Shown here one piece after another: positions 1,125 to 27,442 of a stretch of DNA of 64,000 nucleotides. Within the stretch, counting starts at the first letter, position 1; each line of letters starts with the position of its first letter. The DNA is from an uncultured Acidobacteriota bacterium (lineage in GTDB: Bacteria; Acidobacteriota; Thermoanaerobaculia; Multivoradales; DATKCC01). A model generated the notes under the pieces. That model was given only the letters and a program-made list of their open reading frames with translations. It searched no databases and was not told where the DNA came from. Made by a program: the position numbers and the translations under genes. Location of the stretch: NCBI GenBank assembly GCA_963741925.1, contig CAVUJU010000005.1, forward strand, positions 2,472,534 to 2,536,533. Direction: 5' to 3'.

Positions 1125-1198
1125 GTGGTTTCTACCTAGCCACGGTCCCCTCCCGGGTGGTAAGTACTCTTCCGCTCGAGACAGCCGTCGTCTACTCT
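1125..1198 (+). promoter_or_regulatory. Shared-motif promoter 1, upstream of the PAS kinase
   Basis: GTGGTTTCTACC(1125-1136), GGTGGTAAGTACTC, TTCCGC(1170-1175)-17 bp-TACTCT(1193-1198). Confidence 0.55.
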
Positions 1199-1479
1199 GG
1201 ACTGGAGCCCGCGAGAGGTCGGCCTGCCATGAGGCCGATCGAGCTCGTCGCATCGACTCCGTGTCGGAAGCCCCAACCAGCCGAGTCCCAACAAGGCCGG
1301 TGTCGCGGCGGGCGGGGGCAACGTCGACGTGAAGGCCGCGGGGCTGGTGCGGGCAGGGGGGAAGGCCCGGGCCGGGCCATGCCGCATGGCGCCGGAGCGC
1401 CGAGCTGTTCTCGGGGCGGCGGCTGCCAGGCGGCAGGAAGGAGGCTCGACGCGTGTCGATAGCAACCGAACGCGGTGAG

Positions 1480-3796
1480 ATGACACCGCAGCCCAAGCCC
1501 TCGGTCCCGGGACAGGCTTGCGAGGCTGACCGTTCGCCGGGGCGACGCGAGCGGTATCTCCAGAAACTGATCGAGGGCGGATCCGACGTGTTTCTCGTGC
1601 TCGACCGCGAGGGGACCGTCCGCTTTCGCGGCTCGGGTGGCAAGCGCCTCACCGGTTGGGACGACGACGAGGTGGTCGCCCGGTCGCTGGCCGGCTTCCT
1701 GGCGCCGGATTGCCTGGTTGCCGCCAGGGAAGCACTCGATGAAATGTTGAGCCACCCGGACCGGGCCGTTCGGGCCGAGCTGCGCGTGAGACACAAAGAC
1801 GGCTCGTACGTGGACATGGAAGTTCGGGGAAGGAACCTGCTCGACGATCCGGACGTCGAGGGCGTCGTCGTCGCAGCTCACGACATCACCGAGCGGAAGC
1901 GCACGGAGGCGGCGCTCAGGGACTCCGAGGCGCGCTATCGGCGGCTCTTCGAGGCCGCCCAGGACGGCGTGCTCCTCGTCGACTCGGCGACCGCCGAGGT
2001 CTTCGACGTCAACCCGTTCCTGTGCGGTCTGTTGGGCATGTCGCGCGACCAGATCATGGGCCAGAAGATCTGGGAAGCTCGGCCCCTTCCGAGACGTGCC
2101 GGACTCCAAAGTCAACTTCCGGCAGTTGCAGCGCCTACAGTACATTCGCTACGAGGACCTGCCGCTCGAGACCTTCGATGGCCGCGAGATCGCCGTGGAG
2201 CTCGTCAGCAACGTGTACCAGGTGGGCGCCGAAGAGGTCATCCAGTGCAACATCCGCGACATCACGGAGCGCAAGAGGAGCTCCGAGGAGAACGCTCGAC
2301 TGATCCGGGCGATCGAACAGACCAGCGAGTCGATCGTCATGACCGACACCGAAGGCACCATCGTCTACGTGAACCCGGCCTTCGAGAGCGTCTCGGGCTG
2401 GACGCGCGAGGAGGCCCTGGGGCAGAACCCGCGGATTCTCAAGAGCGGCCGGCAGGACGACGCGTTCTATCGCAGGATGTGGGAGACCCTCGCTCGTGGG
2501 GCGGTCTGGACGGGTCGCCTGGTGAACCGCCGCAAGGACGGGACGGACTACGAGGAATCCGCGACCATCTCGCCGATACGCGACGCCGCCGGACAGATCG
2601 TCAACTACGTGGCGGCGCAGCGCGACGTCACCGTCGAGAGCGCGCTCGAGGAGCAGCTCCACCAGGCGCAGAAGATGGATACCGTCGGACGCCTCGCCGC
2701 CGGCGTCGCGCACGACTTCAACAACCTCCTGGGAGTCATTCTGGGCTACGGCGAGCTGGTGCGAGACGGCCTCTCGGCCGACGATCCGCTGCGTGAGGAC
2801 GTGGCGCATGTTCTCAAGGCCGCGGAGCGCGCGGCGCTCTCGACGCGGCAGCTTCTCGCTCTGGGCCGTATGCAGCCTCGTCAAGTCAGGATTCTCGACC
2901 TGAACACCGTGATCTCCGAGTCGACGAAGATCCTGTCGCGGCTGGTCGGCGAGAAGACCGAGCTCGAGATTCGGCTCCAACCGGCGCTGGGCAGCGTACA
3001 GGCGGACGCCGGCCAGATCGAGCAGGTCCTGCTGAACCTCGTCCTCAACGCCCGCGACGCCCTGCCGGAAGGCGGGCGAATCATCATCGAAACCCGCCGT
3101 GAAGAGCTGGATGGCGACGGCGCTTCGACCCAGGTGCTGATCCCGCCCGGTTCCTACGTCCTGCTGACGGTGACCGATACCGGCTCGGGAATGGACGCGG
3201 CGACCCAGGCCAAGATCTTCGAGCCTTTCTTCACCACCAAAGAGACCGGCAAGGGCACCGGGCTGGGCCTCTCGGTCGTCTACGGCATCGTGCATCAGAG
3301 TGGCGGCGAGATCGCGGTCCACAGCGAAGTCGGCGCCGGGACGACGTTCACGGTCTACCTCCCTCGCCTCGAGGACCCGGTCCTCGCGCCTGGAGACAGG
3401 GCGGAGCCGAGTCCGCAGGCGCACGGAGCCGAAACGGTTCTGCTGGTCGACGACGAAGCGTCGCTGCGCGAGCTGATCCGGAGGGTCCTGGAGGGCAACG
3501 GCTACTCGGTGCTCGTCGCCCGAGACGGGGAAGAAGCCGTGCGGCTCTCCAAGGCGCACGCCGGGGCCATCGACGTCTTGGTGACCGACGTGATCATGCC
3601 GGGAGTGAACGGCACCAAGCTCGCGGAGATCCTCGCCGCGGACCGCCCGGGGATGAAGGTCCTCTATGTCTCGGGCTACAGAGAAGAATCGATCGTGCGA
3701 CAAGGCCTCTTGGGGTCGGGCACGTCGTTCCTCAGCAAGCCGTTCGGGCTCGCTCTCCTGCTTCGTCAGGTCCGAGAGCTGCTGGACGAACGCTGA
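1480..3796 (+). CDS. Hybrid sensor histidine kinase (3 PAS, HisKA, HATPase, receiver), frameshifted at about 2076
   Basis: PAS domains in ORF 1453-2796 continue in ORF 2096-3796 (HDFNNLL, GTGLGL, LLVDDE, TDVIMP). Removing one base in TGGGAAGCTC restores IWELGPFRDVPDSK. Confidence 0.85.
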
Positions 3797-3865
3797 GGAG
3801 GGCTCCTTGGAGTCGTCGGCGAGGATCACTCGCTTGGAGATGCGCTCCTCGAAGGACCGTATTTC

Positions 3866-5071
3866 GTGAAGTCGCCCCGCCCACGCATTCTGACGATCAA
3901 CGGCGGATCGTCGAGCATCCGGTTCGCGCTCTACCACGTGGGCGAAGAGCTGGAGCGAGGGCTCCATGGAAAGATCGACCGCATCGGCTCGAGCGGGACG
4001 TGTCTGACGATCGACGACCCGACCGGGCGCTCACCCGACCGCCGCAGCCTCGCCGCCTCCGATCACGGGTCGGCGGCGAGCTTCCTGCTCGACTGGCTCG
4101 AAGAGCAGGATGGGCTCGCGCGGGTTCGCGCCGTGGGACATCGCGTGGTCCACGGGATGCGACACACCGCGCCCGCATGGGTCACCCGCGAGCTGCTGGA
4201 CGAGCTGCATCGCATCAGCCCGTACGATCCGGAGCATCTGCCGGGCGAGATCGAGCTGATCGAGGCCTTCCGCACGCGTCATCCGAAGCTTCCCCAGGTG
4301 GCCTGTTTCGACACCGCCTTTCACCGCACCATGCCACGAGTCGCCAAGCTGCTCGCCATCCCGCGGCGCTACGAGGCGCAGGGAATCCAGCGCTACGGCT
4401 TCCACGGCTTGTCCTACGCCTATCTGATGGGAGAGCTCGCCCGCCTCGGCGACCCGGCCGCGGCGACCGGGCGCGTGATCCTCGCCCATCTCGGAAACGG
4501 CGCGAGCCTGGCCGCCGTGCGCGACGGTGAGAGCGTCGACACCAGCATGGGCTTCACTCCGACGTCGGGCCTGGTGATGAGCACCCGCTCGGGCGATCTG
4601 GATCCCGGCCTGGCGCCGTATCTCGCGAGAACCGCTGAGATGTCCACGCGACAGTTCTACGCCATGGTCAACCACGAGTCCGGGCTGCTCGGGATCTCCG
4701 AGACCAGCTCCGACATGCGCGATCTGCTGGAGCGCGAAGCGCGGGACGTGCGGGCGGCCGAGGCCGTGGCGCTCTTCTGTTACCAGGCGAAGAAATGGAT
4801 CGGCTCCTTCGCCGCAGCGCTCGGTGGACTGGACGCGCTCGTCTTCGCGGGCGGCATCGGCGAGCACGCGCCCCTCGTCCGCGCGCGAATCTGCGATGGG
4901 CTGGGCTGGCTGGGCATCGAGCTCGACCCGAGGCGCAACGGAAACGATGCGCCGATCATCTCGTCGGATGCCGGCCGCGTCCGGGTGCGGGTCATCCCCA
5001 CCGACGAGGAGCTCATGATCGCGAGGTCCGTCGACCACCTCCTCGCGCTCGAACCCACCCGGAAAAGGTAG
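3866..5071 (+). CDS. ackA: Acetate/propionate kinase
   Basis: INGGSSSIRF, GHRVVHG, FDTAFH, RYGFHGLSY, HLGNGAS, TRSGDLDP, PTDEE motifs. Confidence 0.95.
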   Translation: MKSPRPRILTINGGSSSIRFALYHVGEELERGLHGKIDRIGSSGTCLTIDDPTGRSPDRRSLAASDHGSAASFLLDWLEEQDGLARVRAVGHRVVHGMRHTAPAWVTRELLDELHRISPYDPEHLPGEIELIEAFRTRHPKLPQVACFDTAFHRTMPRVAKLLAIPRRYEAQGIQRYGFHGLSYAYLMGELARLGDPAAATGRVILAHLGNGASLAAVRDGESVDTSMGFTPTSGLVMSTRSGDLDPGLAPYLARTAEMSTRQFYAMVNHESGLLGISETSSDMRDLLEREARDVRAAEAVALFCYQAKKWIGSFAAALGGLDALVFAGGIGEHAPLVRARICDGLGWLGIELDPRRNGNDAPIISSDAGRVRVRVIPTDEELMIARSVDHLLALEPTRKR

Positions 5072-7476: not shown

Positions 7477-7544
7477 GTGGAGTTCTACTCATCTGGCCCT
7501 GAGTAGAAACTGCGCTTTTCGGGGAACGATCGAGCAACTAACCT
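7477..7544 (+). promoter_or_regulatory. Shared-motif promoter 2, upstream of the desaturase
   Basis: GTGGAGTTCTACTC-11 bp-AGTAGAAACTGCGC, TTTTCG(7516-7521)-17 bp-TAACCT(7539-7544). Confidence 0.65.
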
Positions 7545-7609: not shown

Positions 7610-8447
7610 ATGGACAACTCGACGCTCGATCTCAAGGCCTTCCGCGCGCGGCTCTCGCCCTATGCGCACCCGAGCACGCGGAGAGCGGTGGTACAGCTCA
7701 TCGACACCGCGCTGCCGTTCGTCCTCTTCTGGGCTCTGATGGTGAAGAGCTTGTCGGTGTCGTACGCCCTCACCCTGGCCTTGTCGGTGCCGACGGGCTT
7801 CCTGTTCATCCGCCTCTTCATCCTGCAGCACGACTGCGGCCACGGCTCGTTTTTCCGTTCGCGCACCGCCAATCACGTGGTGGGATCGCTGCTCGGGATC
7901 GTGACCCTGTTCCCGTATGGGTACTGGCGCCGCACGCACGCCATCCATCACGCCACCTCCGGCAACCTCGAGCGCCGCGAGCTGGGCGACGTCAAGACCT
8001 ACACCGTGCGCGAGTACAGGGCCTTCTCCCCGATCCACCGGTGGCTCTATGCCCTCTACCGCCATCCACTCGTGCTCCTCGGTTTCGGTCCGGCCTATCA
8101 GTTCGTCCTCAAGCACCGCTTCCCGTTCGACCTGCCGTGGTCGTGGAAGCGCGAGTGGGCGAGTGTGATGTGGACCAACGCCGGCATCGCCGTCGTCTTC
8201 GGCTCGCTGTCCTGGTGGCTGGGTTGGCGCGCGGTTCTCTTCGTGCACCTGCCGGTCGTTCTGGTCGCCGGTGCCGTCGGCGTCTTCCTCTTCTACGTCC
8301 AGCACCAGTTCGAGGACACCTACTGGGAGCACGACAAGCGTTGGGACTTCTATCGAGCCGCCGTCCGAGGCAGCTCCTTTCTCGACCTGCCGCAGCCGCT
8401 CCGCTGGCTGACCGGAAACATCGGTTTCCATCACGTCCATCACCTGG
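7610..8447 (+). pseudogene. Membrane fatty acid desaturase (Des-like), 5' part, interrupted by IS21
   Basis: His boxes HDCGH, HAIHH and HHVHH; the frame is cut by the IS left end and resumes at 11782. Confidence 0.9.
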
Positions 8448-8706
8448 TGTGAGCGGCGGTCAGAAACCGCGGGCATCTGGCGGTTGAGCGCGCAAATCCC
8501 TTGAGGTGAGGCAGCATCATCGTCGCGCGCGGGGGCGGGCGAGGCAGGGTGAGGGAATCGGGGGAGAATCGGGCGAGAGGGGAAACGCGGAGGACGGATG
8601 CGTCTGGGCAAGACCCCGTCCTCCGCTCACGGCCTGGAGCTGACGCTCCAAGCAGGGCGATCATCGCCGGTTTTGGCGCGGGAGTCCAGGCCCTGGAGGT
8701 CTGGCC

Positions 8707-12001: not shown

Positions 12002-12017
12002 GGCGGAGCTTCGCTAG
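11959..12017 (-). repeat. Partial family A repeat
   Basis: Reverse complement reads CTAGCGAAGCTCCGCCTCAAACCGACGAGGCGCCTGAAGCGTCTC..., as at 36219. Confidence 0.8.
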
Positions 12018-12787
12018 GGCTTCGGCGGTTCCTTGTGGGCGTGGGCCTTCTGGAGCTGACCGTCACTCCAGCCCTGCCGGTGACAGGTCTTGCAGAAGGT
12101 CGCATCCGGCAGCACGAGTCCCGCCGCCTTCGCCTTCTCGACGTCCTTCATCACAGAGAGCGACTTGTACTCGCTGCCCGGACCGTGGCAACTCTCGCAA
12201 TCGAGCGGGGGGTGGCGCTTGGCGTGGGCGGTGTCGGACCACGAGGCGTACTGCAGCTTGTGACACACGCCGCACTTCGCGGCGCCGACCCGGGTCAGCC
12301 CGGGGCGGGTTGCTTCGACGGCGATTTCGCCACCCGGATCCACCACTCCGTTGGCTCCGGGCGCCGGTTGCGAGTCGGAGGTTTGCGGAGCGGCTGGCGG
12401 CTCGGCGGGAGCCGGCGGTGCGGCGAACGGTGGGGCCGTGCTCGGCGGAGACTTCGCGGCGGGGAGCTCGGGCACGGACGAAGTAGCTGGCGAAGAAGAA
12501 GTCGACTCCGGCAGCGCAGCGGGCGCGGTGCTCGGTTTCGCCTGCTGAGGCTCTGTCGTCGGCGTCGGACTCGCCTCCGGCGGTGACGAAGCTTCGACCG
12601 GCGGCGGCGAAGCCTCGGCCGGCGGCGCCGACGGTTGGGGCGCCGGTGTCGTCGAGGCGAGCGGTGACGCCGGCGCGGGCGCGGGAGCGGCCGCCTCGCG
12701 AGGGCTGCAGCCGACGGGCACCAGGAAGATCACCGCGAGCGCGGCGGCCAGGGCAACGGTGGCGACGTAGGGCGCTTCGGTCTTCAT
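12014..12787 (-). CDS. Exported triheme c-type cytochrome with Pro/Ala-rich linker
   Basis: Three CxxCH motifs (CGVCH, CESCH, CKTCH); hydrophobic N-terminus ending VGC, a possible lipobox. Confidence 0.8.
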   Translation of the reverse strand: MKTEAPYVATVALAAALAVIFLVPVGCSPREAAAPAPAPASPLASTTPAPQPSAPPAEASPPPVEASSPPEASPTPTTEPQQAKPSTAPAALPESTSSSPATSSVPELPAAKSPPSTAPPFAAPPAPAEPPAAPQTSDSQPAPGANGVVDPGGEIAVEATRPGLTRVGAAKCGVCHKLQYASWSDTAHAKRHPPLDCESCHGPGSEYKSLSVMKDVEKAKAAGLVLPDATFCKTCHRQGWSDGQLQKAHAHKEPPKP

Positions 12788-12960
12788 CGCTCTGCACCTC
12801 TCCAGTAGGGCTCCGTGGGGCGGCACCTCGACGCGGGCGCGCGGGAACCTGCCTCAGGGCCCGGGTTCTCGACGGTCGGGAAGCTCATTCGCAGGCAGCG
12901 ACCCGACGGTTCTTCATCCGAGGTCCTCCTGGGCAGCGAGGCCGCGATGAAACCCTGCAC

Positions 12961-13057
12961 AGCGTAGTCCTCGGAGGCGGCAGCCGGTAGCGCACTTTCT
13001 ACCCAAGCGGGAGAGGTAGAAAGCGCGCTACCCACGACGGGCTCCTGGGGCTACTTT
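12961..13057. promoter_or_regulatory. Back-to-back shared-motif promoters 3 (minus) and 4 (plus)
   Basis: Minus strand: GGTAGAAAGTGCGC TACCGG-17 bp-TACGCT(12966-12961). Plus strand: GGTAGAAAGCGCGC TACCCA-17 bp-TACTTT(13052-13057). Confidence 0.65.
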
Positions 13058-13266: not shown

Positions 13267-14673
13267 TCATGAATCGTTCAGGCTGGGATCGTGCCAGCCG
13301 CCGTCCGCGGCGATGAGCGCGTCGGACTCCTCGGGGCCCCAGCTGCCGGGCGGGTACGGGCGGACCGGGGAATGGGTCTCGAGAACGGCGTCGACCGCGG
13401 CCCAGGCGGCCTCCACGGCGTCCTCGCGGGCGAAGAGCGCTCCGTCGCCCGCCATGGCGTCGCTCAACAGCCGCTCGTAGGGCGCCTCCTCTCCCGGCTG
13501 CTCGTCGAGCAAGTAGAGCTCTCCTTGCTCGCCGACGAACTCCTTGCCGGCGCTCTTGACGCGCGCGGCGAGCGCCACCGCCGAGTTGGGCGAGAGCCGG
13601 AAGCGCAGATAGTTGGCGCGACCGGTCGCCGGCGCGGAGTCGGCGAAGAGACGCTGCGGCGGCGCCTCGAGCTGAACCAGCACCTCGGCGGCCGTCTCGG
13701 GCAGCAGCTTGCCGGAGCGCAGGTACCAGGGCACCCCGTCCCAGCGCCACGAGTCGATGAACAGCCGCAGGGCGCAGAAGGTCTCGACGTCCGAGGTCGG
13801 CGCCACGTCCGGCTCCTCGCGGTAGCCGACGTACTGACCGCGGACCAGGTCGGCGGGCGCGAGCGCACGCATGGCCTCGAAGACCGCCGCCTTCTGCGCG
13901 TGCACGGCGCCGAAGCCCCGGTAGGCCGGCGGCTCCATGGCCAGCAGGGCGACGATCTGGAACAGGTGGTTCTGGACCACGTCGCGCAGACAGCCCGCCG
14001 TCTCGTAGAACGCCCCGCGGCCGTTCACCCCGAAATCCTCGGCGAGGGTCATCTGGACGCTGGCGACGTAGTTGCGGTTCCAGATCGGCTCCAGGAAGGA
14101 GTTGGCGAAGCGGAAGTAGAGGATGTTCATGATCGCTTCCTTGCCCAGGAAGTGATCGATGCGGAAGATCGCATCTTCCGGGAACACCGAGTGCGCGACC
14201 CGGTTGAGCTCGCGCGCGGAGGCCAGGTCGCGTCCGAACGGCTTCTCGACGATGACGCGCGCGGTCTCGGCGAGGCCGGCGGCGCCGAGCCCTCGGATCA
14301 CCGTCTCGAACAGCGACGGCGGGATGGCGAGGTAGTGTGCCGGGCGCCGGGAATCCCCCAGCGCCGCCTTGAGCGCCGTGAAGGTCCCGGAATCGTTGTA
14401 GTCGCCTTGCACGTACTGGAGCCGCGCGAGGAGATCGCGCAGGGCCGCCTGATCGTCGATCCGCCCCCCGTTCCGGATGCCGTCCGTGGCGCGTTCGCGC
14501 AGCCGCTCCAGGCTCCAGGGTGAGGAGGCGACGCCGACCACCGGGACGTCGAGCACGCCCCGCTTCGCCATGGCGTAGAGGGCCGGGAAGATCATCTTGT
14601 GGGCGAGGTCGCCCGTCACGCCGAAGAGCACCAGCGCGTCGGACGGCACCGGGCCGTCGGTGGAAGGTGTCAT
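13267..14673 (-). CDS. zwf: Glucose-6-phosphate 1-dehydrogenase
   Basis: [37 protein letters not shown]. Confidence 0.95.
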
Positions 14674-14681
14674 GTCAGCTC

Positions 14682-14978
14682 CCAGGGAAGCTCCGCCTCA
14701 AACCGACGAGGCGTCTTGAGTGTCTTGGGCTTTGCGAGTCGCTGGTCCCCCGCCCGCGTCGGTCGATCGAGCCTGCGCTCAGCAGAACGGCTTCTCCAGA
14801 ACGTTGGATTCATCGGATCACCCCCCTCACCCTCGATCCCTCTCCCACCCTCGCGGGGGGAGAGGGACGCCGATCCATCGGATCACCCCCCTCACCCTCG
14901 TTCCCTCTCCCACCCTCGCGGGGGGAGAGGGACGCCCCCTCCCGGCCTTGCTGCGCCTGAAAACTCGGCTCGTTCGTC
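14682..14978 (+). repeat. Family A repeat with two tandem hairpin units
   Basis: GAAGCTCCGCCTCAAACCGACGAGGCG head, two TCCCTCTCCC...GGGAGAGGGA hairpins, AAAACTCGGCTCGTTCGTC tail. Confidence 0.85.
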
Positions 14979-14988
14979 GCCGTCCCTG

Positions 14989-15692
14989 TCACGGCGCCTC
15001 CCGCCGCCTGCGCTCGGCCGGGGTCGCGCCGAGCATAGGCGCGAGGTCGCAGGTGACGAGATCCGCGATTCGCTCGACCGTCAGATCGGCCGCGGGGTAG
15101 GCGGCGACGTTCTCGGGATCGAGCGCATCGTGGCCCTGGCGCGGGAAGACGGTGGTCAACCGGTCGCCCCAGATCTCCTTCATCGCCGCGAGGATGCGCA
15201 GCTTGTCGTCCACCATGACGTAGTGCCGGGCCGGGAAGCGCTCGGCCACGGCCTCGAGCATCCGTTCTTTGTGAATGTAGATCAGCACGCGGCCCTCGAC
15301 GGCCGTCCACAGCCCCGAGCGCTGGATCTTGCGCGGCTGAAAGACGACGTCACCATCCGAGAGGATCACCGTCGAACCCAGGGCTCGGAGACGCCGGATG
15401 GCGTCGAGCGCGCCGGGATACAGGCGACGGGCGAACGGATAGTCGATCAGGAAGGACAACATCCGCAGCAATTCCGGATCGCTCGCCGCTCCGAGCCGGT
15501 AGCGCTGCAAGGCACCCAGGTAGTCCACGTACCCCAGCTCGCTGCGCAGCTCCTCGAGGATCGCACCGTACCGGTCCCGACTCGCGGCGCCGAACTCGCG
15601 GGCGAGATGGTCGCGGAGATCCTCCTGCACGCGGTCGTTGTCGAGCAGCGTATTGTCGCAGTCGAGGAGGACGACGACACGCTGCGGAGAGC

Positions 15693-15696
<4 letters not shown>
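14989..15696 (-). CDS. HAD-superfamily hydrolase
   Basis: [10 protein letters not shown] motif I, ILSDGD motif II, MVDDK motif IV. Confidence 0.9.
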
Positions 15697-17381
<1,685 letters not shown>

Positions 17382-17541: not shown

Positions 17542-17566
17542 GATGCCTCCTTTCCAGTCCCACCCC

Positions 17567-17644
17567 AACTTACTTCCCCGAGACCCCGTTCGAAAAGCGC
17601 ACTTTCTACCCGGGAGCCCCGCCGCGTAACAGGTAGGAACTACC
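17567..17644 (-). promoter_or_regulatory. Shared-motif promoter 5, upstream of peptide-pgm-HAD-zwf
   Basis: Minus strand: GGTAGTTCCTACC-21 bp-GGTAGAAAGTGCGC TTTTCG-18 bp-TAAGTT. Confidence 0.7.
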
Positions 17645-17895
17645 CATTCGCGGTAGCGCCACGGGCGTCGTGGCGGTCGAGCCTCGGGAAGCTGGCGGAG
17701 CTTCACCGGTGTCCTGAGAGCTGGGAGTCCGGGGCCGCGCTACGAGTCGAGCTCGGTCTCTTCGGCGGGACGCGAAGAGACCGAGCCTGCTGTAGACTGC
17801 TGTCGGACCTACCGACATCACGCGACGCAGCGCCGGCAAAGAGACGCCAGCCCCTCGGCTGCGCCGCCAGCTCGGCCGCGAGTTGGAGAGAGACG

Positions 17896-19038
<1,143 letters not shown>

Positions 19039-19956: not shown

Positions 19957-21294
19957 TCACGGCGAGGGGTAGATCGATGCGGTCTGTGCCGGAAGATCGG
20001 TCGCGTGGACGCGCCAGCCGGCGTTGGCGAGGGGCGGATGGGCGAGGTGCCGGACCCACCAGCCGCAAACCCGCGCCGCCGTGCCGCCGTGGACGATCGA
20101 CAGCCGCGCGACCCGTTTGATGTTCTCTGCGACGATCTGCTCGGCCGCCTTCTTGATGCGCCTCCGCGTCAGCCGGTCGGCGTCGCTGGCGATCATCCGG
20201 TCGAACAGCACGTGCGAGCGCAGAAGGGCGTGCACGTAGGCCTCGTACGCCGGGCCGAACCTGTCCGGCGACTCCAGCATGCGGGCGGCGATGGCGCCGG
20301 CCAACAGTGCGGTGCCCACGCCGGAGGAGGTCGGGAACCATACCTGGCCGAAGGAGGGTCCGGCGAGCAGCCAGTTGCCGCCATAGGCGCGCTCGTGCAT
20401 GAAGTAGCGATTGCGGACCGCGACTACCTCCGAGCGCTCGGGGAAGTGCTCGCGGAGGTCGAGGCCGCGGCGGGCGTAGGCGTCGGCGACCAGCTCGACC
20501 ACCGCCTCGTCGCCCGGTTCCTGGTCGCCGGCGTCCATGCTGATGCCCACCGACGCGTAGCCGCCGAGCGGGATGCACCAAGCGAAGCCGTCGATCCCGT
20601 CCCAGCGCCGATAGAGCCTCATCAGGCTCGTGCAGTGGCGCCAGCCGCCGCCGACCTCGCAGTCGCCCGGGCCGCCCCCGGGCTTGCGGTAATGGCGAAA
20701 GACGACCCGCTGCGGCTCGCCGAGCCACTGGATCGGCACCCCGACGCTGCGGGCGACGAGCCGCAGGTGGTTGGTGGCGTCGAAGACGTATCGTGGCCGT
20801 ACCACGGATCCATCCGAGAGGCACAGCTCCTCGATGCGATCCGAGGCCTGGTCGTAGCTCATCGATTCGACCCGCAGGTCGGCATGCGCGCACAAGGGGT
20901 GAGCGACCGTCCGCTCGAAGAGGGCGAGGTCGAAGCCGATCCGATCGACGTGGATGAACACGTCGCCGGCACGGAACCCGAGCATCCGGAGCCCGAGCGA
21001 GCGACTCGCCTTGTGCCGGAAGTCGCAGATCGCGGCGTAGCCGGCGGCGTAGACCGCGACGTAGCGCTTGAGGTGGTAGTACTCCGAGTACTCGGGGAAG
21101 AACTCGAGCAGCGCCACCGAGCCCGCCGGGTCGATCGACTCACCGAGCCGCGGCCTCGAGGTCGGGCGCGCCCCGAGCAGCACGTGCTCGACGCCGGCCT
21201 GCGAGAGGTAGTGACTGATCACCACCCCCGACAGCCCGCCACCGATGATGACCGGCTTGGTATCGAGCGACGGCAAGGGCCCGGCCTCTCTCAT
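19957..21294 (-). CDS. FAD-dependent oxidoreductase of the halogenase/geranylgeranyl reductase fold
   Basis: IIGGGLSG, PRLGES, VDRIGFD, FDAT, FAWCIP, TSSGV motifs. Confidence 0.8.
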   Translation of the reverse strand: MREAGPLPSLDTKPVIIGGGLSGVVISHYLSQAGVEHVLLGARPTSRPRLGESIDPAGSVALLEFFPEYSEYYHLKRYVAVYAAGYAAICDFRHKASRSLGLRMLGFRAGDVFIHVDRIGFDLALFERTVAHPLCAHADLRVESMSYDQASDRIEELCLSDGSVVRPRYVFDATNHLRLVARSVGVPIQWLGEPQRVVFRHYRKPGGGPGDCEVGGGWRHCTSLMRLYRRWDGIDGFAWCIPLGGYASVGISMDAGDQEPGDEAVVELVADAYARRGLDLREHFPERSEVVAVRNRYFMHERAYGGNWLLAGPSFGQVWFPTSSGVGTALLAGAIAARMLESPDRFGPAYEAYVHALLRSHVLFDRMIASDADRLTRRRIKKAAEQIVAENIKRVARLSIVHGGTAARVCGWWVRHLAHPPLANAGWRVHATDLPAQTASIYPSP

Positions 21295-21417
21295 CGCGGT
21301 TCGTGTCTCGGATCATAGCTCACCGGACTCGCGAGTCGCCCGCCCACTCCCAGACCGTTCGGCGGGCCGCGACGCGGAGGCGCGAGGGCTTCCCTCGAGG
21401 CGAGAGAGACCGACTCC

Positions 21418-21494
21418 GTAGAAATTACCGGCCCGGCGGCATCGCTTCCGGGTAGAAATTGCGCTTCACAAGGGGCCGCCACGAGCTCTAGGCT
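21418..21494 (+). promoter_or_regulatory. Shared-motif promoter 6, upstream of the CheBR kinase
   Basis: GTAGAAATTACC-21 bp-GGTAGAAATTGCGC TTCACA-18 bp-TAGGCT(21489-21494). Confidence 0.7.
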
Positions 21495-21572
21495 CCTAGT
21501 CGTCGCCTCATCCAATCGCTCACGCCGCAAGCCGTAGCCCGGTGAAGCACGCTCCGCGGCCGGTCTTCGCCG

Positions 21573-24500
21573 GTGGCCTCTCTCGACGAGCCGAACCTCA
21601 TGGCCCCCAATCCATCACGCCAACGGCCTCCGGCACCGGCACCTGCACCTGCACCTGCCGAAGGTACACCACCGACCCTGGTCGTCGGCGTCGGCGCCTC
21701 CGCCGGGGGGCTCGGTGCGTGCCAGGGGTTCCTCCAAGGGGCCCCGGCCGATCAGGGCCTGGCGTTCATCGTGGTCCTTCACCTGGCGCCCGCCGAGAAG
21801 AGCCACGTCGCCGCGATCCTGCAAAAGGCGACGGCCATGGAGGTCTCCCAGGTCACCGGCAACGAGCGCGTCGAGCCCGACCACGTCTACATCATCGCGC
21901 CCGCGACCTCGCTCGGGATCCGCGATGGCGCCTTGGTCGCCGGTCCGCCTGGGGAGCCTCACTACCTCGCCAGGCCCATCGACACGTTCTTCTCCGCGCT
22001 GGCTGCGGATCAGAGGAAGCGGGCGGTCGGCATCGTGCTCTCCGGAACCGGGAGCGACGGGGCCGCCGGCCTGGAGGCCATCCGCTCGGCCGGAGGGATG
22101 TGCCTGGTTCAGGACCCCGAGACGGCCGAGTACGACGGGATGCCGCGAAGCGCCATCGCAACGGGTGCCGCCGACGCGGTCGTGGCGCCGAGAGACATGG
22201 GGGAGCTCCTCCTGCGATACGCCGCCGCGCCCCGGGTGCGGCCCCGGGTCGGAGACCCCGCGCGGCGGGCCGGGGGCGAGACGGGCGAGGGGTGGCTTCC
22301 GGCGATCCTGGCGTTGCTCGGCGAACGCTACCGCGTCGACCTTCGCAACTACAAGACGGGGACTCTCGAGCGCCGGACCCAGCGGCGCATCGAGCTCAGG
22401 CACCTCGCCGGGTGGCAGGACTATCTCGCGTACTTGCGGACGGATCCGGAGGAGGTCGATGCGCTCTATCGCGACCTCCTGATCGGCGTCACGCGCTTCT
22501 TCCGCGATCCCGAGGAGTGGGAGGCCCTGACCCGAGAGATCGTGCCAGAGCTGGTCGAGAAGCGCCGCGACGCCACCGCGCTACGGGTCTGGTCGGCGGG
22601 CTGCGCCACCGGCGAGGAGGCCTACAGCCTGGCCATGGTGCTCCTCGAGCAGCTCGCGAGCTCGGCAAGCCGCCTCGACTTGCAGGTGTTCGCCTCCGAC
22701 GCGAGCGAGCGAGCGCTCGCTGTCGCACGGCAGGGGCGCTACCCCGCCACGATCGGAGAGTCCGTGTCCGCGGATCGCCTGCGACGGTTCTTCCGGCCCA
22801 CCGGCGAGGGCTTCGAGGTCGAGCGGCCGCTGCGCGAGGCGGTCACCTTCGCGGCCCACGACCTGCTCTCCGACCCACCGTTCGCCCACCTCGACCTGGT
22901 GAGCTGTCGCAACGTGCTCATCTATCTCGAGCCGGCCGCGCAGGAGAGGTTGCTCGAGCTGTTCCACTTCTCGCTTCAGCCTCAGGGCATCCTGTGGCTC
23001 GGCGCCGCCGAGACGGTCGGCGGGCGAAGCGACCTGTTCGAGGAGGTGGCTTCGGGCAAGCACCGGTTCTTCCGCCCCATCGGGGTCGCGGGGGCGCATC
23101 GCTACCGCCGGGCGCGCCGGGCGGCCGCGCTGGCTCCGGCGCAGCTCGTGCCCAAGAGCGGGGCACCGACCGAGGGACCGAAGATCACCCGCCTGATCGA
23201 AAAGGTGGTGCTCGACCGCTTCAGCTCGGCCTGCGTGGTGGTCGATCGGGGGCTCGAGATGCGCTACCTCTTCGGGCCGACGGCCGAGTATCTCAGGCAG
23301 CCGCAGGGCGCGACCAGATCGGACGTGCTCTCCTGGGTTCGGCCCGAGCTCTACGCCAAGGTGCGGGCCGGTCTCGCCGAGGCCATCGAGCACGAGCGGA
23401 AGGTGACGGCCACCGGCATTCTGCTGGAGCGGGGTACGGCGAGCGCCCGGGTCGAGATCGTCATCGAGCCGATCCCGGCCAACTCGCCTGCCGCCGGGCT
23501 CGTGCTCGTCGCCTTCCGGGACCGGCCGCGCGCGGGTGGGCTGGCCGCCGCGTCGGGTGGAGAGGGTGGGGAGGTCGCGGCGACCACCGCCCAGGTCCAG
23601 CAGGAGCTCGAGGAGACGAGGGAGGAGCTACGGACCGCGGTCGATCAGCTCAGGACCGCCACGGAAGAGCACGGTGCGAGGTACGAGGAGCTGCTCTCCC
23701 TCAACGAGGAGTTTCAGTCGAGCAACGAGGAGATCGAGGCGTCGAAGGAAGAGCTTCAGTCCCTGAACGAGGAGCTGACCACCATCAACCGGCAGCTCGA
23801 GGAGCGAAACGAGGAGCTGCGCTCACTCAGCTCGGACCTCAGCAACCTGTTGGTGAGCGCCGCCGTTCTGACCCTCTTCCTCGACCGCGAGCTCCGGATC
23901 CGCCGCTTCACTCCCGCGTGCGCCTCGGTCATGGCCATCGTCTCGGGCGACGTCGGTCGCTCGCTGCGCGACCTGAAGCTGAAAGTCCACGACGAGGGCC
24001 TGTTCACCGATGCGCTGCGCGTCCTGGGAGGGGAGCCCGCGCCGATCGAAGCGGAGGTGTCCACCGACGACGGTCGATGGTTCTCGAGGCGAGCTCTTCC
24101 CTACCGCACCGCCGACGGAGGCATCGACGGCGTCTGCCTGACGTTTCACGAGATCACGGCGCAGAAGCGAGCGACCGCCGCGAGCGAGGACGCCCGCCTC
24201 TATGCCGAAGCGATCATCCGGACCTCGCGCATGCCCCTGCTCGTGCTCGACGCGGATCACCGCCTGGTCTCGGCGAACGCGCAGTTCTATGCCACGTTCC
24301 AGGTCGAGGAGGAGGAGACGGAGAGCCGCCGGATCTACGAGCTCGGCAACGGACAATGGGACATCCCCAGACTGCGGGCTCTGTTGGAGGAGGTACTCCT
24401 CGAAGGCCGGGAGATCCGCGACTACGACGTGGATCACGTGTTCGAGAAGATCGGCTGGCGCAGCATGAGACTCAATGCCCAGGTGATGCCGCGCGACGGC

Positions 24501-25724
24501 CACTCGGACCTGGTGCTGGTATCGATCGAGGACGTGACCGACCTGCGCAAGGCCGAGATGGAAGCCGAGAGCCGGGCCGAGGAGCTGGCGCTGGGGGATC
24601 GACGCAAGAACGAGTTCCTCGCCATGCTCGGCCATGAGCTGCGCAATCCGTTGGCGGCGCTCACCCACGGGCTCGATCTCATGCGCCGGGCCGGCGGCGG
24701 CCCGACCGAGCCGGTCCGGACCATGATGGAGAGGCAGACCCGGCGCATGACCACCATGCTCGACCAGCTCCTCGACGTGGCGCGGGTGGTCTCCGGAAAG
24801 CTCGAGCTGGTGCGGGAGGCGGCGGACGTCGAGGCGGCGGCGCGGGCAGCGATCGAGAGCGTGACCCCGATGATCGAGGCGGCCCACCACGAGCTCACCG
24901 TGGACCTGCCGCGGCCGGGGAAGGTCGAGGTGCTGGGCGACGTGGTGCGCCTGGCGCAAGTGATCGAGAACCTGCTGGGCAACGCGGCGAAGTACACCGA
25001 GGACGGCGGCCGGATCTGGCTCACCGTGAGGTCGACGCAAGACGCGGTCGAGCTCTCGATTCGAGACACCGGCATCGGCATGGAGCCGGCGGTGCTCGCC
25101 CACGTCTTCCACCTGTTCACGCAGGCTCCAGGTAGCCTCGACCGGGCAAAAGGGGGCCTCGGGCTCGGGCTGCCGCTGGTCCGTAGCCTGATCGAGATGC
25201 ACGGCGGGAAGGTCGAAGCCTCGAGCGCCGGGCCGGGCGAGGGCACCGAGGTGGTGGTGACGTTGCCGCGGCTGCGCCGTGGTCGTCTCGCGACCACGGT
25301 CGATAAGCCCGTCGCTCCGGCTCCGGCCACGGCCCGCAGGATCCTGGTCGTCGACGACGAGGAAGACGTCGCCCGGTCGCTGGTCGAGCTCCTGACGCTC
25401 CAGGGCCACGAGGCCCGAGCGGCGTCCGACGGGCCCGGGGCCCTGGCGGCCGCGGCAGAGCTCGAGCCCGAGGTCGTGGTCCTCGACCTCGGGCTGCCCG
25501 GGATGGACGGCTACGAGCTGGGCCGGACGCTTCGCGAGATGCGCGGCGAGGGGTTGCTGCTCGTCGCCCTGACCGGCTACCAGGACGACAAGGCGCGCTT
25601 GAAGGAAGCCGGTTTCGACGGGCACCTGCTCAAGCCGACTCCGATCGAGAAGCTCTACGCCATGGTGGCCGAGCTCGACGGGAGAGATCGGGAAGCGGGA
25701 TCTCCCGGACCCTCTCCGCCGTAG
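21573..25724 (+). CDS. CheB-CheR-PAS-histidine kinase-receiver fusion
   Basis: GASAGG, VLHL and SGTGSDG (CheB); [13 protein letters not shown] and CRNVLIY (CheR); [10 protein letters not shown] coil; HELRNPL; VVDDE receiver. Start may be 21600. Confidence 0.92.
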
Positions 25725-25760
25725 AGAGCGCCCGGGAGCCCGCGCCCCGGCAGGGTCCGA

Positions 25761-27218
25761 TCAGGACGAGTGCGGAGGCTTCTTGTCGGCCTTCTTCGCG
25801 TCGCCCTTGGACTTGTCCACCTTCTCGGGCTTCGCGGCCTTCTTCGCCGGCGGCTTCGCAGCCTTCCTGGCCTGGTCCTCGGTCGCCTGCACCGCCTTGA
25901 CCTCGATCTGCTGTCGATTCCGCAGCTGCTGCTCGGCGCGCTGGTGCTCTTCCTGCTGCGCCTTCAGCTCGGCCGCCTGGCGCTGCGCCAACGCGTTGGC
26001 GTCGGCCTTGGACTGCTGCGCTCGCGCCAGCTCCTGGCGATGGCTCTGCTCGAGCGCTTTGAGCTGCTTCTGCTGGTTCTGCTCGAGCTTCTTCTGCTCG
26101 AGCTGGAACTGGCGCTCGTCGAGCTCGCGCGCCGGGGGCCTGACCCGCGGAGCCACCAGAATGGGGACCACGGCGTTGCCCTGGCGGGGCGGTGCCACCG
26201 CGGGCGGGCGGCCGGCCGCCGGGGCCGGCTCGTGGGACCGGCTCGGCTTGGGCTCCAACCTCGGCAGGCCGGCGTTGTTGCGCGGTGCCACACCCACCGA
26301 CTTCAGCCTGCTCTCCCCGGGCCGGTAGATGCTGATCACATCGCGTTGCACGCCCGTACGGCGAGGGTCGGGCGCGGTGACGACGCGCAGCCGCGGCGCC
26401 TTGCGGCCGATCGCCCGTTCGATGCGCTCGATCGGCACACCGTGGTTGACCACCCGGTTGTCGATCACCGTGTAGTTGGTGATGTTGGTGGTCTGGTGGA
26501 TGATCGTGATGTTGCGGGCCTCGGGCTCGATGTAGTCACCGATACGGGAATCGAGGAAGCGGCGCTCCTGGACGAAGGCGTAGCTGCGCGGTGCGATCCC
26601 GATGCTGAGGTTGAAGCCGCCGAGCCGGATACCGACCCCGACCTGGAAGCCGACCTCGGGCGGCAGGGGCGCCCAGCCGACGTACCCGTTGCCCTGCTGC
26701 CAGGACACCCAAGCCGGCCCCCAGTCGGTGCCGGGCACCCACAACCAGCCGATTTGCGGGTCCCAGGCCCAGCGGCCGTAGTGGTAGGTCGCCCAGCCGA
26801 ACGGCTCGTACGAGATCCAGGTCCAGCCGTAGTCGCTCTCGACCCAACGGCCGATGGAGTACGGGCGCCAGTTGGGGTACACGTTGCGCGGGAACCAGAC
26901 CCAGCCGTAGTAGGGATGCCGCACCCACTCGCCATAGGGAGAGAGCTCATCGTAGAAGAAGCCCACGTCGACGACCGGAGCCTGCCCGCGGTCGTAGCCG
27001 TACGGCGGCTGACGATCGTAGGGGTCGGAGGATTGGCCCCGGTACGGGTCGTATTGTCCCTGGCTGCCGGCGTAGGGGTCGGCCGGCTGGCGCCCGTAGG
27101 GATCGACCTGCCCCTGGCTGCCGGGCGAGCCACCGTATTGCCCTGTCTGGCCATACGCCATCGGGGTGGTCACCCCGACCAGCAGAGCCAGCACTGCGAT
27201 TCGAATCACGATCATCAC
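25761..27218 (-). CDS. Secreted Trp/Pro-rich protein (DUF6600-like) with coiled-coil C-terminus
   Basis: Signal peptide; FYDELSPYGEW, WRPY, GWATYHYGRW, WGPAWVSW, VGWAPLPP. Confidence 0.75.
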   Translation of the reverse strand: MMIVIRIAVLALLVGVTTPMAYGQTGQYGGSPGSQGQVDPYGRQPADPYAGSQGQYDPYRGQSSDPYDRQPPYGYDRGQAPVVDVGFFYDELSPYGEWVRHPYYGWVWFPRNVYPNWRPYSIGRWVESDYGWTWISYEPFGWATYHYGRWAWDPQIGWLWVPGTDWGPAWVSWQQGNGYVGWAPLPPEVGFQVGVGIRLGGFNLSIGIAPRSYAFVQERRFLDSRIGDYIEPEARNITIIHQTTNITNYTVIDNRVVNHGVPIERIERAIGRKAPRLRVVTAPDPRRTGVQRDVISIYRPGESRLKSVGVAPRNNAGLPRLEPKPSRSHEPAPAAGRPPAVAPPRQGNAVVPILVAPRVRPPARELDERQFQLEQKKLEQNQQKQLKALEQSHRQELARAQQSKADANALAQRQAAELKAQQEEHQRAEQQLRNRQQIEVKAVQATEDQARKAAKPPAKKAAKPEKVDKSKGDAKKADKKPPHSS

Positions 27219-27299
27219 GTTCCCCTTTGTCCAGTCTTGTCGCGAGAAAGGCTCGTCCCCAGGGCCGTGGCCCGAAGGCGTCTGGAGCCTTGACCTTCG

Positions 27300-27442
27300 A
27301 GGGTAGGCCTGCGGGCTCGGCGCGGAGAAGAGCACTTACTACCTGGAGGCCCGGATGCCCGGCGGCGTAGTTTCTACCCGAGTCGCGGCGCTGCCATTGG
27401 GTAGAAACTGCGCTTCACGGGAGCGCCCCGGGGCGCTAGATT
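27300..27442. promoter_or_regulatory. Divergent shared-motif promoters 7 (minus) and 8 (plus) around a central palindrome
   Basis: Central CGTAGTTTCTACC(27366-27378). Minus: GGTAGTAAGTGCTC TTCTCC-18 bp-TACCCT. Plus: GGTAGAAACTGCGC TTCACG-17 bp-TAGATT(27437-27442). Confidence 0.75.

Follow-up and report, generated by a model that had tools for sequence, protein, structure and literature searches.

Do the promoters of one design scattered along this DNA of an uncultured soil-type acidobacterium form a single regulon, and which protein would control it? The stretch analysed (64,000 nucleotides, the window) carries eight boxes, and the coordinates and strands proposed for them in the original prediction are all confirmed. 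The sequence GGTAGWAANTGCKC has 12 matches in the window at no more than two mismatches, with 1.26 expected; the named check of the motif against shuffled controls thus shows enrichment, and none of 100 shuffles reaches 12. At all eight boxes a TAnnnT occurs 37-38 bp past the box start, and the eight -10 hexamers listed earlier are all found, 23 or 24 bp beyond the box end. The weak -35-like hexamer claimed to follow the box directly begins with TT in six of the eight and with TA in two. The shared design of activator box, weak -35 and TAnnnT is upheld. The elements are as follows.

1124..1136 (+): distal palindrome-like site CGTGGTTTCTACC, PAS-kinase promoter, 32 bp ahead of the box; two mismatches to GGTAGNNNCTACC
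1156..1169 (+): proximal box GGTGGTAAGTACTC, PAS-kinase promoter
1193..1198 (+): -10-like TACTCT, PAS-kinase promoter, +37 from the box start
7478..7490 (+): distal-like site TGGAGTTCTACTC, desaturase promoter, 24 bp ahead of the box; read by eye
7502..7515 (+): proximal box AGTAGAAACTGCGC, desaturase promoter
7539..7544 (+): -10-like TAACCT, desaturase promoter
12961..12966 (-): -10-like TACGCT, cytochrome promoter
12990..13003 (-): proximal box GGTAGAAAGTGCGC, cytochrome promoter; also the distal site for 13015(+)
13015..13028 (+): box GGTAGAAAGCGCGC, distal site of the cytochrome promoter, possible orphan promoter
13052..13057 (+): -10-like TACTTT, orphan site
17567..17572 (-): -10-like TAAGTT, pgm promoter, +38
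17597..17610 (-): proximal box GGTAGAAAGTGCGC, pgm promoter
17632..17644 (.): perfect distal palindrome GGTAG-N3-CTACC, pgm promoter region
21417..21429 (+): distal site CGTAGAAATTACC, CheB-CheR kinase promoter
21451..21464 (+): proximal box GGTAGAAATTGCGC, CheB-CheR kinase promoter
21489..21494 (+): -10-like TAGGCT, CheB-CheR kinase promoter, +38
27300..27305 (-): -10-like TACCCT, DUF6600 promoter
27330..27343 (-): proximal box GGTAGTAAGTGCTC, DUF6600 promoter
27366..27378 (.): central site GGTAGAAACTACG (minus strand), distal for both promoters, 35 and 34 bp from the flanking boxes
27400..27413 (+): proximal box GGTAGAAACTGCGC, csbD promoter
27437..27442 (+): -10-like TAGATT, csbD promoter

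The PAS-kinase box is the weakest of the set (two mismatches, matrix score 26.4). Among the four extra matches to GGTAGWAANTGCKC, that at 27365-27378(-) is the distal site common to both promoters at 27.3 kb; those at 21207, 44039 and 48500 have two mismatches each and lie inside ORFs, without the architecture. The second half of the window, said to lack the box, indeed holds nothing with this architecture. In 12000-31900 no promoter was found that agrees with the consensus at 9 of 12 positions.

The eight promoters are all real, but the genome total is 11. Three lie outside the window: C5:2461697 and C5:2471866 just upstream and C5:1722985 far away. The 11 sites score 23.9-36.3 with the box matrix, the next best match scoring 20.5, and ten of them have TAnnnT at +37/+38. 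Ten of the promoters fall inside one 38-kb island (C5:2461697-2499946), which the window covers only partly; the regulon is essentially this island plus one outlying gene. Islands of this type, bearing the same box, turn up with a patchy distribution in two or more classes of Acidobacteriota.

The upstream palindrome is also present, although its spacing is more regular than the 11, 19 or 21-22 bp first described: a site like GGTAG-N3-CTACC begins 32-35 bp ahead of the box at five of the eight window promoters and at 8/11 genome-wide. The desaturase promoter and the 13003/13015 pair have it 10 bp closer, beginning 24 bp ahead. The desaturase spacing recurs in a G005 homologue; the 13003(-) and 13015(+) boxes are each the distal site of the other, and in relative G001 the 13015 homologue is without its -10. 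The perfect copy at 17632..17644 is one of only two in the genome. Distal and proximal centres are 34 bp apart, which does not correspond to an integral number of helical turns; this counts against the model proposed below.

As an independent test, a box-only matrix spanning just -5..+22 of the box was run over 15 other genomes and returned 80 sites. TAnnnT stands at +37/+38 in 73 of them, with only two other occurrences across offsets 30-45; the GGTAG-N3-CTACC palindrome begins at -36..-32 in 47/80, and 15 divergent pairs lie 21-23 bp apart. Where an ORF was called (64 sites), a start codon follows the predicted transcription start by 20-27 nt in 21 cases. Of 300 genomes in the order, 39 contain the composite GGTAGWAANTRCKC-N23-24-TANNNT, and none contains its reversed control (0/300).

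The genes behind the boxes in the window are listed below.

1453..3796 (+): PAS-PAS-HisKA-HATPase-REC hybrid kinase
3866-5071 and 5075-7444 (+): ackA and the phosphoketolase gene xfp
7610..8452 (+): fatty-acid desaturase
12014..12826 (-): small multihaem c-type cytochrome; start codon uncertain
13267..17381 (-): pgm (15693-17381), HAD hydrolase (14989-15696), zwf (13267-14649)
21573..25724 (+): CheB-CheR-PAS-HisKA-HATPase-REC hybrid kinase
25761..27194 (-): DUF6600 protein; start uncertain, because the frame is open up to 27335
27509..28217 (+): csbD, glsB/Transgly_assoc (27731-28009), dodecin (28014-28217)

The PAS-PAS hybrid kinase is a single frame in relatives and is broken here by a 1-nt insertion near 2075; ackA and xfp are probably co-transcribed with it, since the gaps are short. 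The longest csbD ORF begins at 27443, directly beside the -10; translation more likely begins at the ATG at 27509, and the 67-aa product then has the length found in relatives. No ORF was found downstream of the 13015(+) box. The genes behind the boxes are of envelope and stress types: CsbD, BON/OsmY-like, GlsB, dodecin, DUF5670, DUF6600, ice-binding-like, desaturase, cyclic-glucan synthase, xfp-ackA, pgm-zwf and hybrid kinases. This content bears out the stress character ascribed to the downstream genes.

As to the controlling protein, a two-component pair lies beside the csbD operon.

28559..29197 (-): NarL/FixJ-family response regulator (REC and GerE HTH), proposed box-binding activator
29172..31307 (-): putative cognate soluble sensor kinase (PAS, GAF, HisKA_3, HATPase_c), overlapping the regulator gene

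This regulator was the candidate named at the outset, and both adjacency and co-occurrence back it. Orthologs of at least 67% identity occur in 47 of the 300 genomes of the order, and a box lies within 1.5 kb of the ortholog at 20 of 30 ortholog loci. Regulator and motif occur together in 30 genomes, the motif only in nine, the regulator only in 17 and neither in 244. In three of the nine, the ortholog next to the sites is fragmented or frameshifted; in the other six the ortholog was not found, these assemblies being 76-97% complete and, in five cases, in 320-1,050 contigs (G005 is in 10). The listed sites of G005 and G087 are within about 3.3 kb of contig starts. Absences of the regulator are soft, because no more than 7-10 candidate matches to the regulator were scored per genome in the large searches. 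The 17 genomes with an ortholog and no strict composite site mostly have distant orthologs (67-78% identity), and one of them, G038, has a diverged box beside the regulator gene.

In an even draw of 401 Acidobacteriota genomes, at least two composite sites occur in seven of the eight genomes with an ortholog versus 0/393 without; two of the 393 have a single composite match, and the control gives four single matches. Orthologs from another class, at 55-56% identity, adjoin the same architecture (170 bp off in G600, 2 kb in G378). In the recognition helix, orthologs down to 55% identity preserve S-[VIM]-R-T-x-E-[NS]-H-R-A-N, from which two within-genus paralogs depart. Since the regulator gene travels with the box across many related genomes, it probably activates these promoters jointly.

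The linkage could be mere co-inheritance of the island, and the kinase, DUF6600 and CsbD genes also co-occur with the motif. Only its DNA-binding domain singles the regulator out among them. The regulator-kinase pair is likewise the only DNA-binding gene in all six further annotated islands (five families), and it flanks the island of G000; sigma-54 activator genes are present in three of the six and a sigma-70 region-4 protein in one (G149). Autoregulation often ties a regulator to its motif; in this genome no box precedes the kinase-regulator operon, hence there is no sign of such control.

On balance we lean towards a cluster-linked two-component regulon, read from the sequence, in which the phosphorylated 28559-29197 regulator would activate the box promoters with help from the distal site. 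The soluble PAS/GAF-HisKA_3 kinase would perceive the signal and phosphorylate the NarL-family regulator, whose dimers would occupy units of 13-14 bp, GGTAG-A/T-AA-n-T-A/G-C. The palindromic copy, GGTAG-N3-CTACC, which fits the unit well, would be centred near -77 (one helical turn closer at two promoters), and an imperfect copy, GGTAGWAAnTGCKC, at about -49 to -36, abutting the weak -35 (TTCnCG), with the TAnnnT -10 coming 17-18 bp after it. The proximal dimer, steadied by the distal one, may then recruit housekeeping-type RNA polymerase (class II-like activation). Compact divergent pairs would have sites in common, each box serving one gene as proximal site and its neighbour as distal site. 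The predicted output comprises envelope, osmotic, cold and general-stress proteins, carbon-rerouting enzymes and two hybrid kinases, which possibly feed back on signalling.

The box could instead be a real activator site bound by another protein, of the island or from elsewhere, the NarL-type regulator being a passenger or a parallel regulator. The boxless regulator operon, the six motif-bearing genomes in which no ortholog was found, the sigma-54 activators in three of six islands and island ORFs without a family (176 aa after C5:2471866; about 110 and 212 aa in relatives) would fit; we nevertheless consider this unlikely, as no alternative DNA-binding family is present throughout the annotated islands, the family-less ORFs are not conserved across families and in the phylum sample it is the regulator whose distribution follows the motif. 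Sigma-54 promoters have the spacing GG-N10-GC; the box has GG-N8-GC, and hence is unlike one. A dedicated alternative sigma factor might use the conserved block directly as its promoter, with no separate activator; this is suggested by the strictly spaced, promoter-like elements, by the sigma control of general-stress genes such as csbD in other phyla and by the region-4 protein of G149. We regard it as very unlikely: the most conserved block, GGTAGAAA, precedes the -10 by 29 bp, a distance too great for a -35 element; the TAnnnT -10 itself is ordinary, and the islands have no sigma gene in common (one of six has one, G000 none). Palindromic distal copies, inverted orientations and divergent site-sharing suit a dimeric DNA-binding protein.

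It is also conceivable that the regulator binds the box and mainly represses, or has a dual role, occluding the -35 region until the signal comes; the proximal site abuts or overlaps that region, a position used by many repressors. The box-to--10 register is, however, constant within 1 bp in 73/80 independent sites, and the -35 hexamers are uniformly poor, with only TT conserved. Activator-dependent promoters typically show both features; an operator does not depend on so constant a register. DevR promoters, the analogues studied best, are activated. We therefore find repression quite doubtful and infer activation. Finally, the likeness might come from recent duplication or a small promoter-bearing mobile repeat, without common regulation. 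The genome does have an unrelated dispersed intergenic repeat in 123 copies, and insertions (an IS21 element, a PIN pair, a cfa block) have reshaped the island. This origin is extremely improbable, because only the box, distal site, TT and -10 are conserved while the 23-24 bp spacer and flanks differ everywhere, no extended flank homology between sites was seen, and across two classes the sites are retained both at orthologous genes and at genes that are not orthologous.

The preferred reading, an activating two-component regulon, has one of its closest known counterparts in DevR/DosR-DevS/DosT of Mycobacterium tuberculosis, which likewise pairs a NarL-subfamily regulator with a GAF-domain kinase of HisKA_3 core and has stress-survival targets partly clustered near the regulator. 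The Dev box is a 20-bp, GGGAC-N4-GTCCC-based element; the unit here is the 13-bp GGTAG-N3-CTACC, with site centres 34 bp apart. PMC3029386 states that DevR needs at least two closely packed sites, the start-proximal one overlapping -35, and that cooperative occupancy is required for induction; the layout predicted here, with at least two sites per promoter and one at -35, is similar. DevR (E 9e-34) matches the regulator no better than NarL (1e-36) or VraR does, and against the PDB the kinase GAF domains gave no DosS/DosT GAF match at E <=1e-5, only ATPase domains being matched. Phylum and gene content differ too, no hspX, USP or nitroreductase genes being seen here.

The regulator shares the REC plus GerE helix-turn-helix family with NarL, BvgA and EvgA, and falls under every NCBIfam equivalog cut-off (best MctR, 170 bits versus 300; NarL, 153 versus 250). 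NarL/FixJ-family activators bind as dimers on inverted short repeats, and BvgA at fha and ptx uses a high-affinity upstream site with weaker sites reaching -35. Their T-rich half-sites (TTTCCTA for BvgA, TTCYTACA for EvgA) loosely resemble TTTCTACC; half-site orientation and spacing are unlike the NarL 7-2-7 arrangement and the EvgA box. In the aligned recognition helix E-N-H-R-A stands here for K-V-H-V-K in NarL, at the positions of the NarL base contacts.

Gene content overlaps strongly with the sigma-B (Bacillus), RpoS (E. coli) and EcfG/PhyR (Alphaproteobacteria) regulons: CsbD, BON/OsmY-like, GlsB/YeaQ (Transgly_assoc), DUF892 (YciE/F-like), dodecin, membrane and osmoprotection functions. 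Promoters for alternative sigma factors define those regulons, whereas here an ordinary TAnnnT -10 goes with an upstream putative protein-binding box tied to a two-component regulator and, unlike general stress regulons, the set is confined in this genome to one island and one gene. The proposed regulon is undescribed; the kind of system is already known.

The regulon considered here is real and well conserved. In the window, the pattern GGTAGWAANTGCKC is matched 12 times with at most two mismatches; dinucleotide-preserving shuffles give a mean of 1.26, and none of 100 shuffles reaches 12. All eight boxes (proximal regulator sites, GGTAGWAAnTGCKC) of the original prediction are found at their positions and on their strands, and its eight -10 hexamers are also present, each being TAnnnT exactly 23 or 24 bp past the box end. 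The hexamer right after the box starts with TT at six of these eight sites and with TA at two. An extra match, 27365-27378(-), falls in the same intergenic region as two of the eight boxes. The extra matches at 21207, 44039 and 48500 have two mismatches each and lie inside long ORFs without promoter features. No site with the architecture is found in the second half of the window.

The genome (G000; 5.94 Mb, 71.8% G+C, five contigs) contains 14 boxes at up to one mismatch: 10 in C5:2461697-2499946 on the contig of the window, which itself occupies C5:2472534-2536533, one at C5:1722985, and three isolated ones, for which neither TAnnnT nor the upstream element was found. A box matrix was built on the 11 promoter-type sites, which score 23.9-36.3, and the next best genome position scores 20.5; since the matrix was trained on those same sites, the gap shows only the absence of further members. 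The regulon in this genome is one 38-kb island, beginning 10.8 kb upstream of the window, and one distant gene. TAnnnT occurs at +37 or +38 from the box start in 10 of the 11 sites. At the site C5:2471866 its position is taken by GAAGAT, which two relatives also have at their homologous sites. The following genes are preceded by box promoters in G000:

BON (OsmY-like) protein and ADH_N_2 oxidoreductase, possibly continuing to a 2,699-aa cyclic beta-1,2-glucan synthase-like protein
176-aa protein without family assignment
PAS-PAS-HisKA-REC hybrid kinase (box 1156), then ackA and xfp
fatty-acid desaturase
small multihaem cytochrome
pgm, HAD hydrolase, zwf
CheB-CheR-PAS-HisKA-REC hybrid kinase
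DUF6600 protein
csbD, glsB, dodecin
secreted ice-binding-like protein, far from the island (site C5:1722985)

The architecture was checked in the islands of 15 other genomes, the genus of the window excluded, using a matrix that spans only box positions -5 to +22 and is thus blind to the -10 and the distal site. This box-only matrix finds 80 sites. TAnnnT stands at +37 in 59 of them and at +38 in 14, i.e., in 73 of 80, and offsets 30-45 otherwise show only two occurrences. A palindrome (at most two mismatches in ten) begins at -36 to -32 in 47 of the 80. The consensus consists of G.a.TTTCTACC (-33 to -22), CGGGTAGaAAGTGCtCTTCCCGG (-2 to +20) and CTAg.TT (+36 to +42); the stretches separating these blocks are not conserved. 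Among the 64 sites where an ORF could be called, 21 have the first start codon 20-27 nt past the predicted transcription start; a second group is found at 53-92 nt. There are also 15 divergent box pairs with a start-to-start spacing of 21-23 bp, so that each box occupies the expected distal position of the other.

The distal site is related to the box itself. In G000 a GGTAG-N3-CTACC-like 13-mer begins 32-35 bp before the box at 8 of the 11 promoters; the genome has only two perfect copies of GGTAG-N3-CTACC, both being distal sites of box promoters. The box is an imperfect version of this unit (GGTAG-AAA-nTGCG versus GGTAG-AAA-CTACC). At the desaturase promoter and in the pair 13003/13015 the second site is 24 bp away rather than 34, one helical turn nearer. 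In the intergenic region at 27.3 kb three sites follow one another, and that in the middle (27366-27378) is distal for both the DUF6600 and the csbD promoters. A transcript from the orphan 13015(+) would run for about 200 nt toward the 3' end of the convergent zwf (13029-13266), and no plausible ORF was found downstream of it; its -10 is kept in the relative G002 and lost in the relative G001. For want of this ORF and of the -10 in G001, we take the main role of 13015(+) to be that of a distal site for the cytochrome promoter; it might also yield a small or antisense RNA, or be an inactive promoter.

First genes at the 64 sites of the 15 other genomes were assigned to Pfam families as follows: CsbD 11, DUF6600 10, BON 8, DUF5670 6, OMP beta-barrel 4, ice-binding-like 3, class A penicillin-binding protein 3, CheB or CheB-CheR kinase 2, aldehyde dehydrogenase 2 and subtilase 2; DUF892, GlsB, phospholipase A1, desaturase, NdvB-like and ADH_N_2 oxidoreductase occur once each, and the remainder belong to no family. 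No recognisable DNA-binding protein was found among the genes after the boxes. Judging by the families, the target set is of envelope, osmotic, cold and general-stress type; content typical of the general stress response is present (CsbD, BON/OsmY, GlsB/YeaQ and YciE/F-like small proteins). The longest csbD ORF begins at 27443, directly after the -10; the ATG at 27509 gives a 67-aa protein and a leader of about 59 nt, both as in relatives.

Some details of the locus can be given here. Two congeneric relatives have the PAS-PAS-HisKA-REC kinase in one uninterrupted frame; in G000 one extra A near 2070-2080 (GGGAAGCTC versus GGG-AGCTC) yields the ORFs 1453-2796 and 2096-3796, which is either a frameshift or an assembly error. 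The glucan synthase-like gene (GT2 and GH94) occupies C5:2463771-2471870 (8771-16870 of locus L001), upstream of the window and after the BON-oxidoreductase pair; its homologue in the genome G222 has a box of its own. An IS21-type pair (integrase/Mu-transposase-like istA and the istB ATPase; 9227-11387) stands between the desaturase and cytochrome genes and is missing there in G001. Between the 176-aa gene and the PAS kinase stands a PIN-domain (VapC-like) ORF preceded by a small ORF (188-864), an insertion missing in both G001 and G002. Genes for a cyclopropane-fatty-acid synthase (cfa), an alpha/beta hydrolase and an FAD protein (17896-21294) separate the pgm and CheB-CheR-kinase promoters, which in G001 stand about 210 bp from each other as a compact divergent pair; G002 has a cfa remnant only. 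No box with a -10 directed at cfa was found. The genome also has a dispersed intergenic repeat, unrelated to the box: 123 matches to its first 26 nt were counted at up to three mismatches, and window copies are at 28220, 28474, 12010(-), 14689, 34259, 36226 and 37348. The interval from dodecin to the regulator gene is filled by two copies; at C5:1.722 Mb, similar copies stand on either side of the ice-binding-like gene.

The candidate regulator is well supported. The 212-aa product of 28559-29197(-) contains a Response_reg domain (7.8e-27) and a GerE domain (5.6e-20), i.e., the receiver and helix-turn-helix of the NarL/FixJ family, and its gene overlaps that of a soluble PAS/GAF-HisKA_3 kinase, 29172-31307(-). 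The best PDB matches of the regulator are NarL, VraR and DevR. No named equivalog (NarL, MctR, MadR, UvrY, EvgA and others) was assigned, all 73 NCBIfam hits being under the curated cut-off (the best is MctR, 170.2 bits versus 300). The recognition-helix stretch is the same across nine aligned orthologs and differs in two paralogs at 39-40% identity. Besides the regulator gene, no gene in or next to the G000 island encodes a DNA-binding domain, and the regulator-kinase pair is present in all six further annotated islands (five families); other candidates in these six are sigma-54 activators in three and a sigma-70 region-4 protein in one. We found no sign of autoregulation: within 450 bp upstream, the kinase gene has neither a box nor a GGTAG.

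The original prediction named this gene as the nearest candidate, which is borne out by its adjacency to the boxes and by their co-occurrence across the order and the phylum. Of 300 genomes of the order, 39 contain the composite pattern GGTAGWAANTRCKC-N23-24-TANNNT, each having 1-8 hits that are mostly clustered on one contig; the reversed pattern, used as a control, occurs in none. Regulator orthologs (at least 67% identity) are present in 47 of the 300 genomes and in 10 of 12 families. The full-architecture box was found in 20 of 30 ortholog loci within 1.5-kb flanks, nearly always just past the 3' end of the regulator gene; the background at this threshold is two false hits in the 5.9 Mb of G000. 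In 27 of the 30 genomes of these loci a site lies within about 6 kb on the same contig. Cross-tabulation of the order, made by hand, gives 30 genomes with both, 9 with the motif only, 17 with the regulator only and 244 with neither, counts that overstate independence since the genomes are mutually related and that come, as in the phylum search, from only 7-10 candidate regulators scored per genome.

The nine motif-only genomes were searched again with full scoring. The ortholog is in two contig-end pieces in G082, is split by a frameshift beside its sites in G062, and is partial beside the site in G148. It was not found in the other six, which are 76-97% complete, five of them being in 320-1,050 contigs and G005 in 10; the listed sites of G005 and of G087 are at most about 3.3 kb from contig starts. 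Most of the 17 ortholog-bearing genomes without a strict composite hit hold more distant orthologs, and one of the 17, G038, has a diverged box adjoining the gene.

Across 401 genomes sampled evenly from the phylum, at least two composite hits are observed in seven: G000, G016, two that belong to other orders of the class, and three that share one family in another class. The ortholog (E 1e-58 or better) is found in eight of the 401; seven of these are exactly the seven with at least two sites, and none of the other 393 has at least two. In the three genomes of the other class the orthologs are 55-56% identical; the distance from gene to site is 170 bp in G600 and 2 kb in G378, and in G447 the two are on different contigs. 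The eighth genome, G317, belongs to the same family as these three and has the ortholog with no strict composite hit. Single composite hits occur in two genomes of the sample, and the control pattern gives four single hits. The two, in G441 and G633, are rejected as real sites; both lack the distal element, lie in genomes of 40-52% GC and are put down to chance.

The relation of regulator identity to taxonomy is loose: orthologs from other families reach 83-85%, and that of G009, from the same family, 77% (loci L059-L113, L146-L151). In the regulator tree G071 (family f10) pairs with G117 (family f5) at an SH-aLRT of 99. These identities and this pair hint at possible transfer of the island. 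In the same tree the families cluster beyond chance, with 14 label changes versus 22.6 in shuffles. Mobility of the island cannot be claimed, because this quick tree is mostly unresolved, with 19 of 33 inner branches open.

As to the mechanism, the box centre is 31 bp before the start of the -10. If TAnnnT spans -12 to -7 (the transcription start being predicted), the box covers -49 to -36 and is centred near -43, as in class II activation, with a centre near -77 for the usual distal site. The -35 adjoins the box and keeps only TT. No sigma-70 promoter matching 9 of the 12 consensus positions was found in 12000-31900, which fits weak promoters but gives no positions for them. The register fixed within 1 bp, the poor -35 and the better-matched upstream palindrome point to an activator contacting RNA polymerase. 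We presume that a regulator dimer on the box adjoining the -35 would contact RNA polymerase and that a second dimer on the upstream palindrome would assist it. The original prediction of activator-driven sigma70-type promoters thus agrees with the box near -43, the poor -35 and TAnnnT at +37 or +38 in 10 of 11 and 73 of 80 sites.

We consider it probable, on sequence grounds, that this regulator acts at the box, as an activator and with this geometry. Linkage by itself cannot tell the regulator from other island genes of the same distribution, and a different protein might bind the box; this is unlikely, and the G000 island offers no other gene with a DNA-binding domain. That this regulator represses is quite unlikely; the fixed register and the weakness of the promoters point to activation. 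A dedicated sigma factor reading the conserved block is a distinctly poor candidate: a sigma-like gene is present in one of six annotated islands, that of the region-4 protein, but not in that of G000, and from the conserved GGTAGAAA block to the -10 there are 29 bp, not 16-18 bp, as an alternative or ECF sigma would have it. An ECF-sigma promoter is rejected on this spacing. The sigma-54 (-24/-12) consensus has GG and GC exactly 10 bp apart; a sigma-54 promoter is rejected, as GG and TGC of the box are 8 bp apart at all sites and TAnnnT 23-24 bp downstream would have no place in it. That the sites are a repeat without function is hardly credible: the spacer sequence is different at every site, so the sites are not repeat copies.

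The probable reading, with the regulator as an activator at the box, allows a broader suggestion, which we make tentatively and regard as rather doubtful in its entirety. In Thermoanaerobaculia, and in one or more further acidobacterial classes, a functional equivalent of the general stress response may be under a two-component activator of NarL type, in place of an alternative sigma factor. The activator and its target promoters would reside on a compact, patchy and possibly transferable island, bidirectional promoters would share sites, and the encoded hybrid kinases, one of them CheB-CheR-fused, could rewire the input of the regulon.

Acidobacteriota are abundant soil bacteria, and we know of no experimentally defined regulons for them. 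The regulon is apparently undescribed so far: a text search of the open-access literature found, among the articles listed, no account of the box or of such a regulon in Acidobacteriota. CsbD, the BON domain and a response regulator come together in one paper, which concerns AlgU of Azotobacter. Passages of PMC10693628 mention Acidobacteria only as a soil phylum. The promoter grammar (box, spacing and -10), a named candidate regulator and a conserved target list would together be the first for stress control in an uncultured acidobacterial lineage. Poorly known proteins (DUF6600, DUF5670, CsbD, BON and ice-binding-like) become tied to one response, and the regulon could be used as a marker of stress states in soil metatranscriptomes. 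No principle is overturned, since the proposed mechanism is a familiar one.

A comparison with DevR, a member of the NarL subfamily, is natural. According to an excerpt of PMC3029386, DevR promoters have at least two closely packed sites, the start-proximal one overlaps the -35, and cooperative occupancy is needed for induction. The promoters considered here resemble this description in having the proximal site at the -35 and a distal site at 8 of 11 G000 and 47 of 80 other promoters; however, DevR is no nearer to the regulator than NarL or VraR is. With DevS/DosT, whose tandem GAF domains bind haem, the kinase has the layout of GAF and HisKA_3 in common, although its sequence match to their PDB chains is confined to the ATPase domain (E 2e-8 and 4e-8), and a sequence search found no GAF-domain PDB chain matching it at 1e-5 or better. 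The Dev box is a 20-bp palindrome; the conserved unit here, GGTAG-N3-CTACC or GGTAGWAAnTGCKC, differs from the Dev box, and the motif is likewise unlike the NarL heptamer arrangement. The general stress regulons of other phyla are similar in gene content but are under alternative sigma factors.
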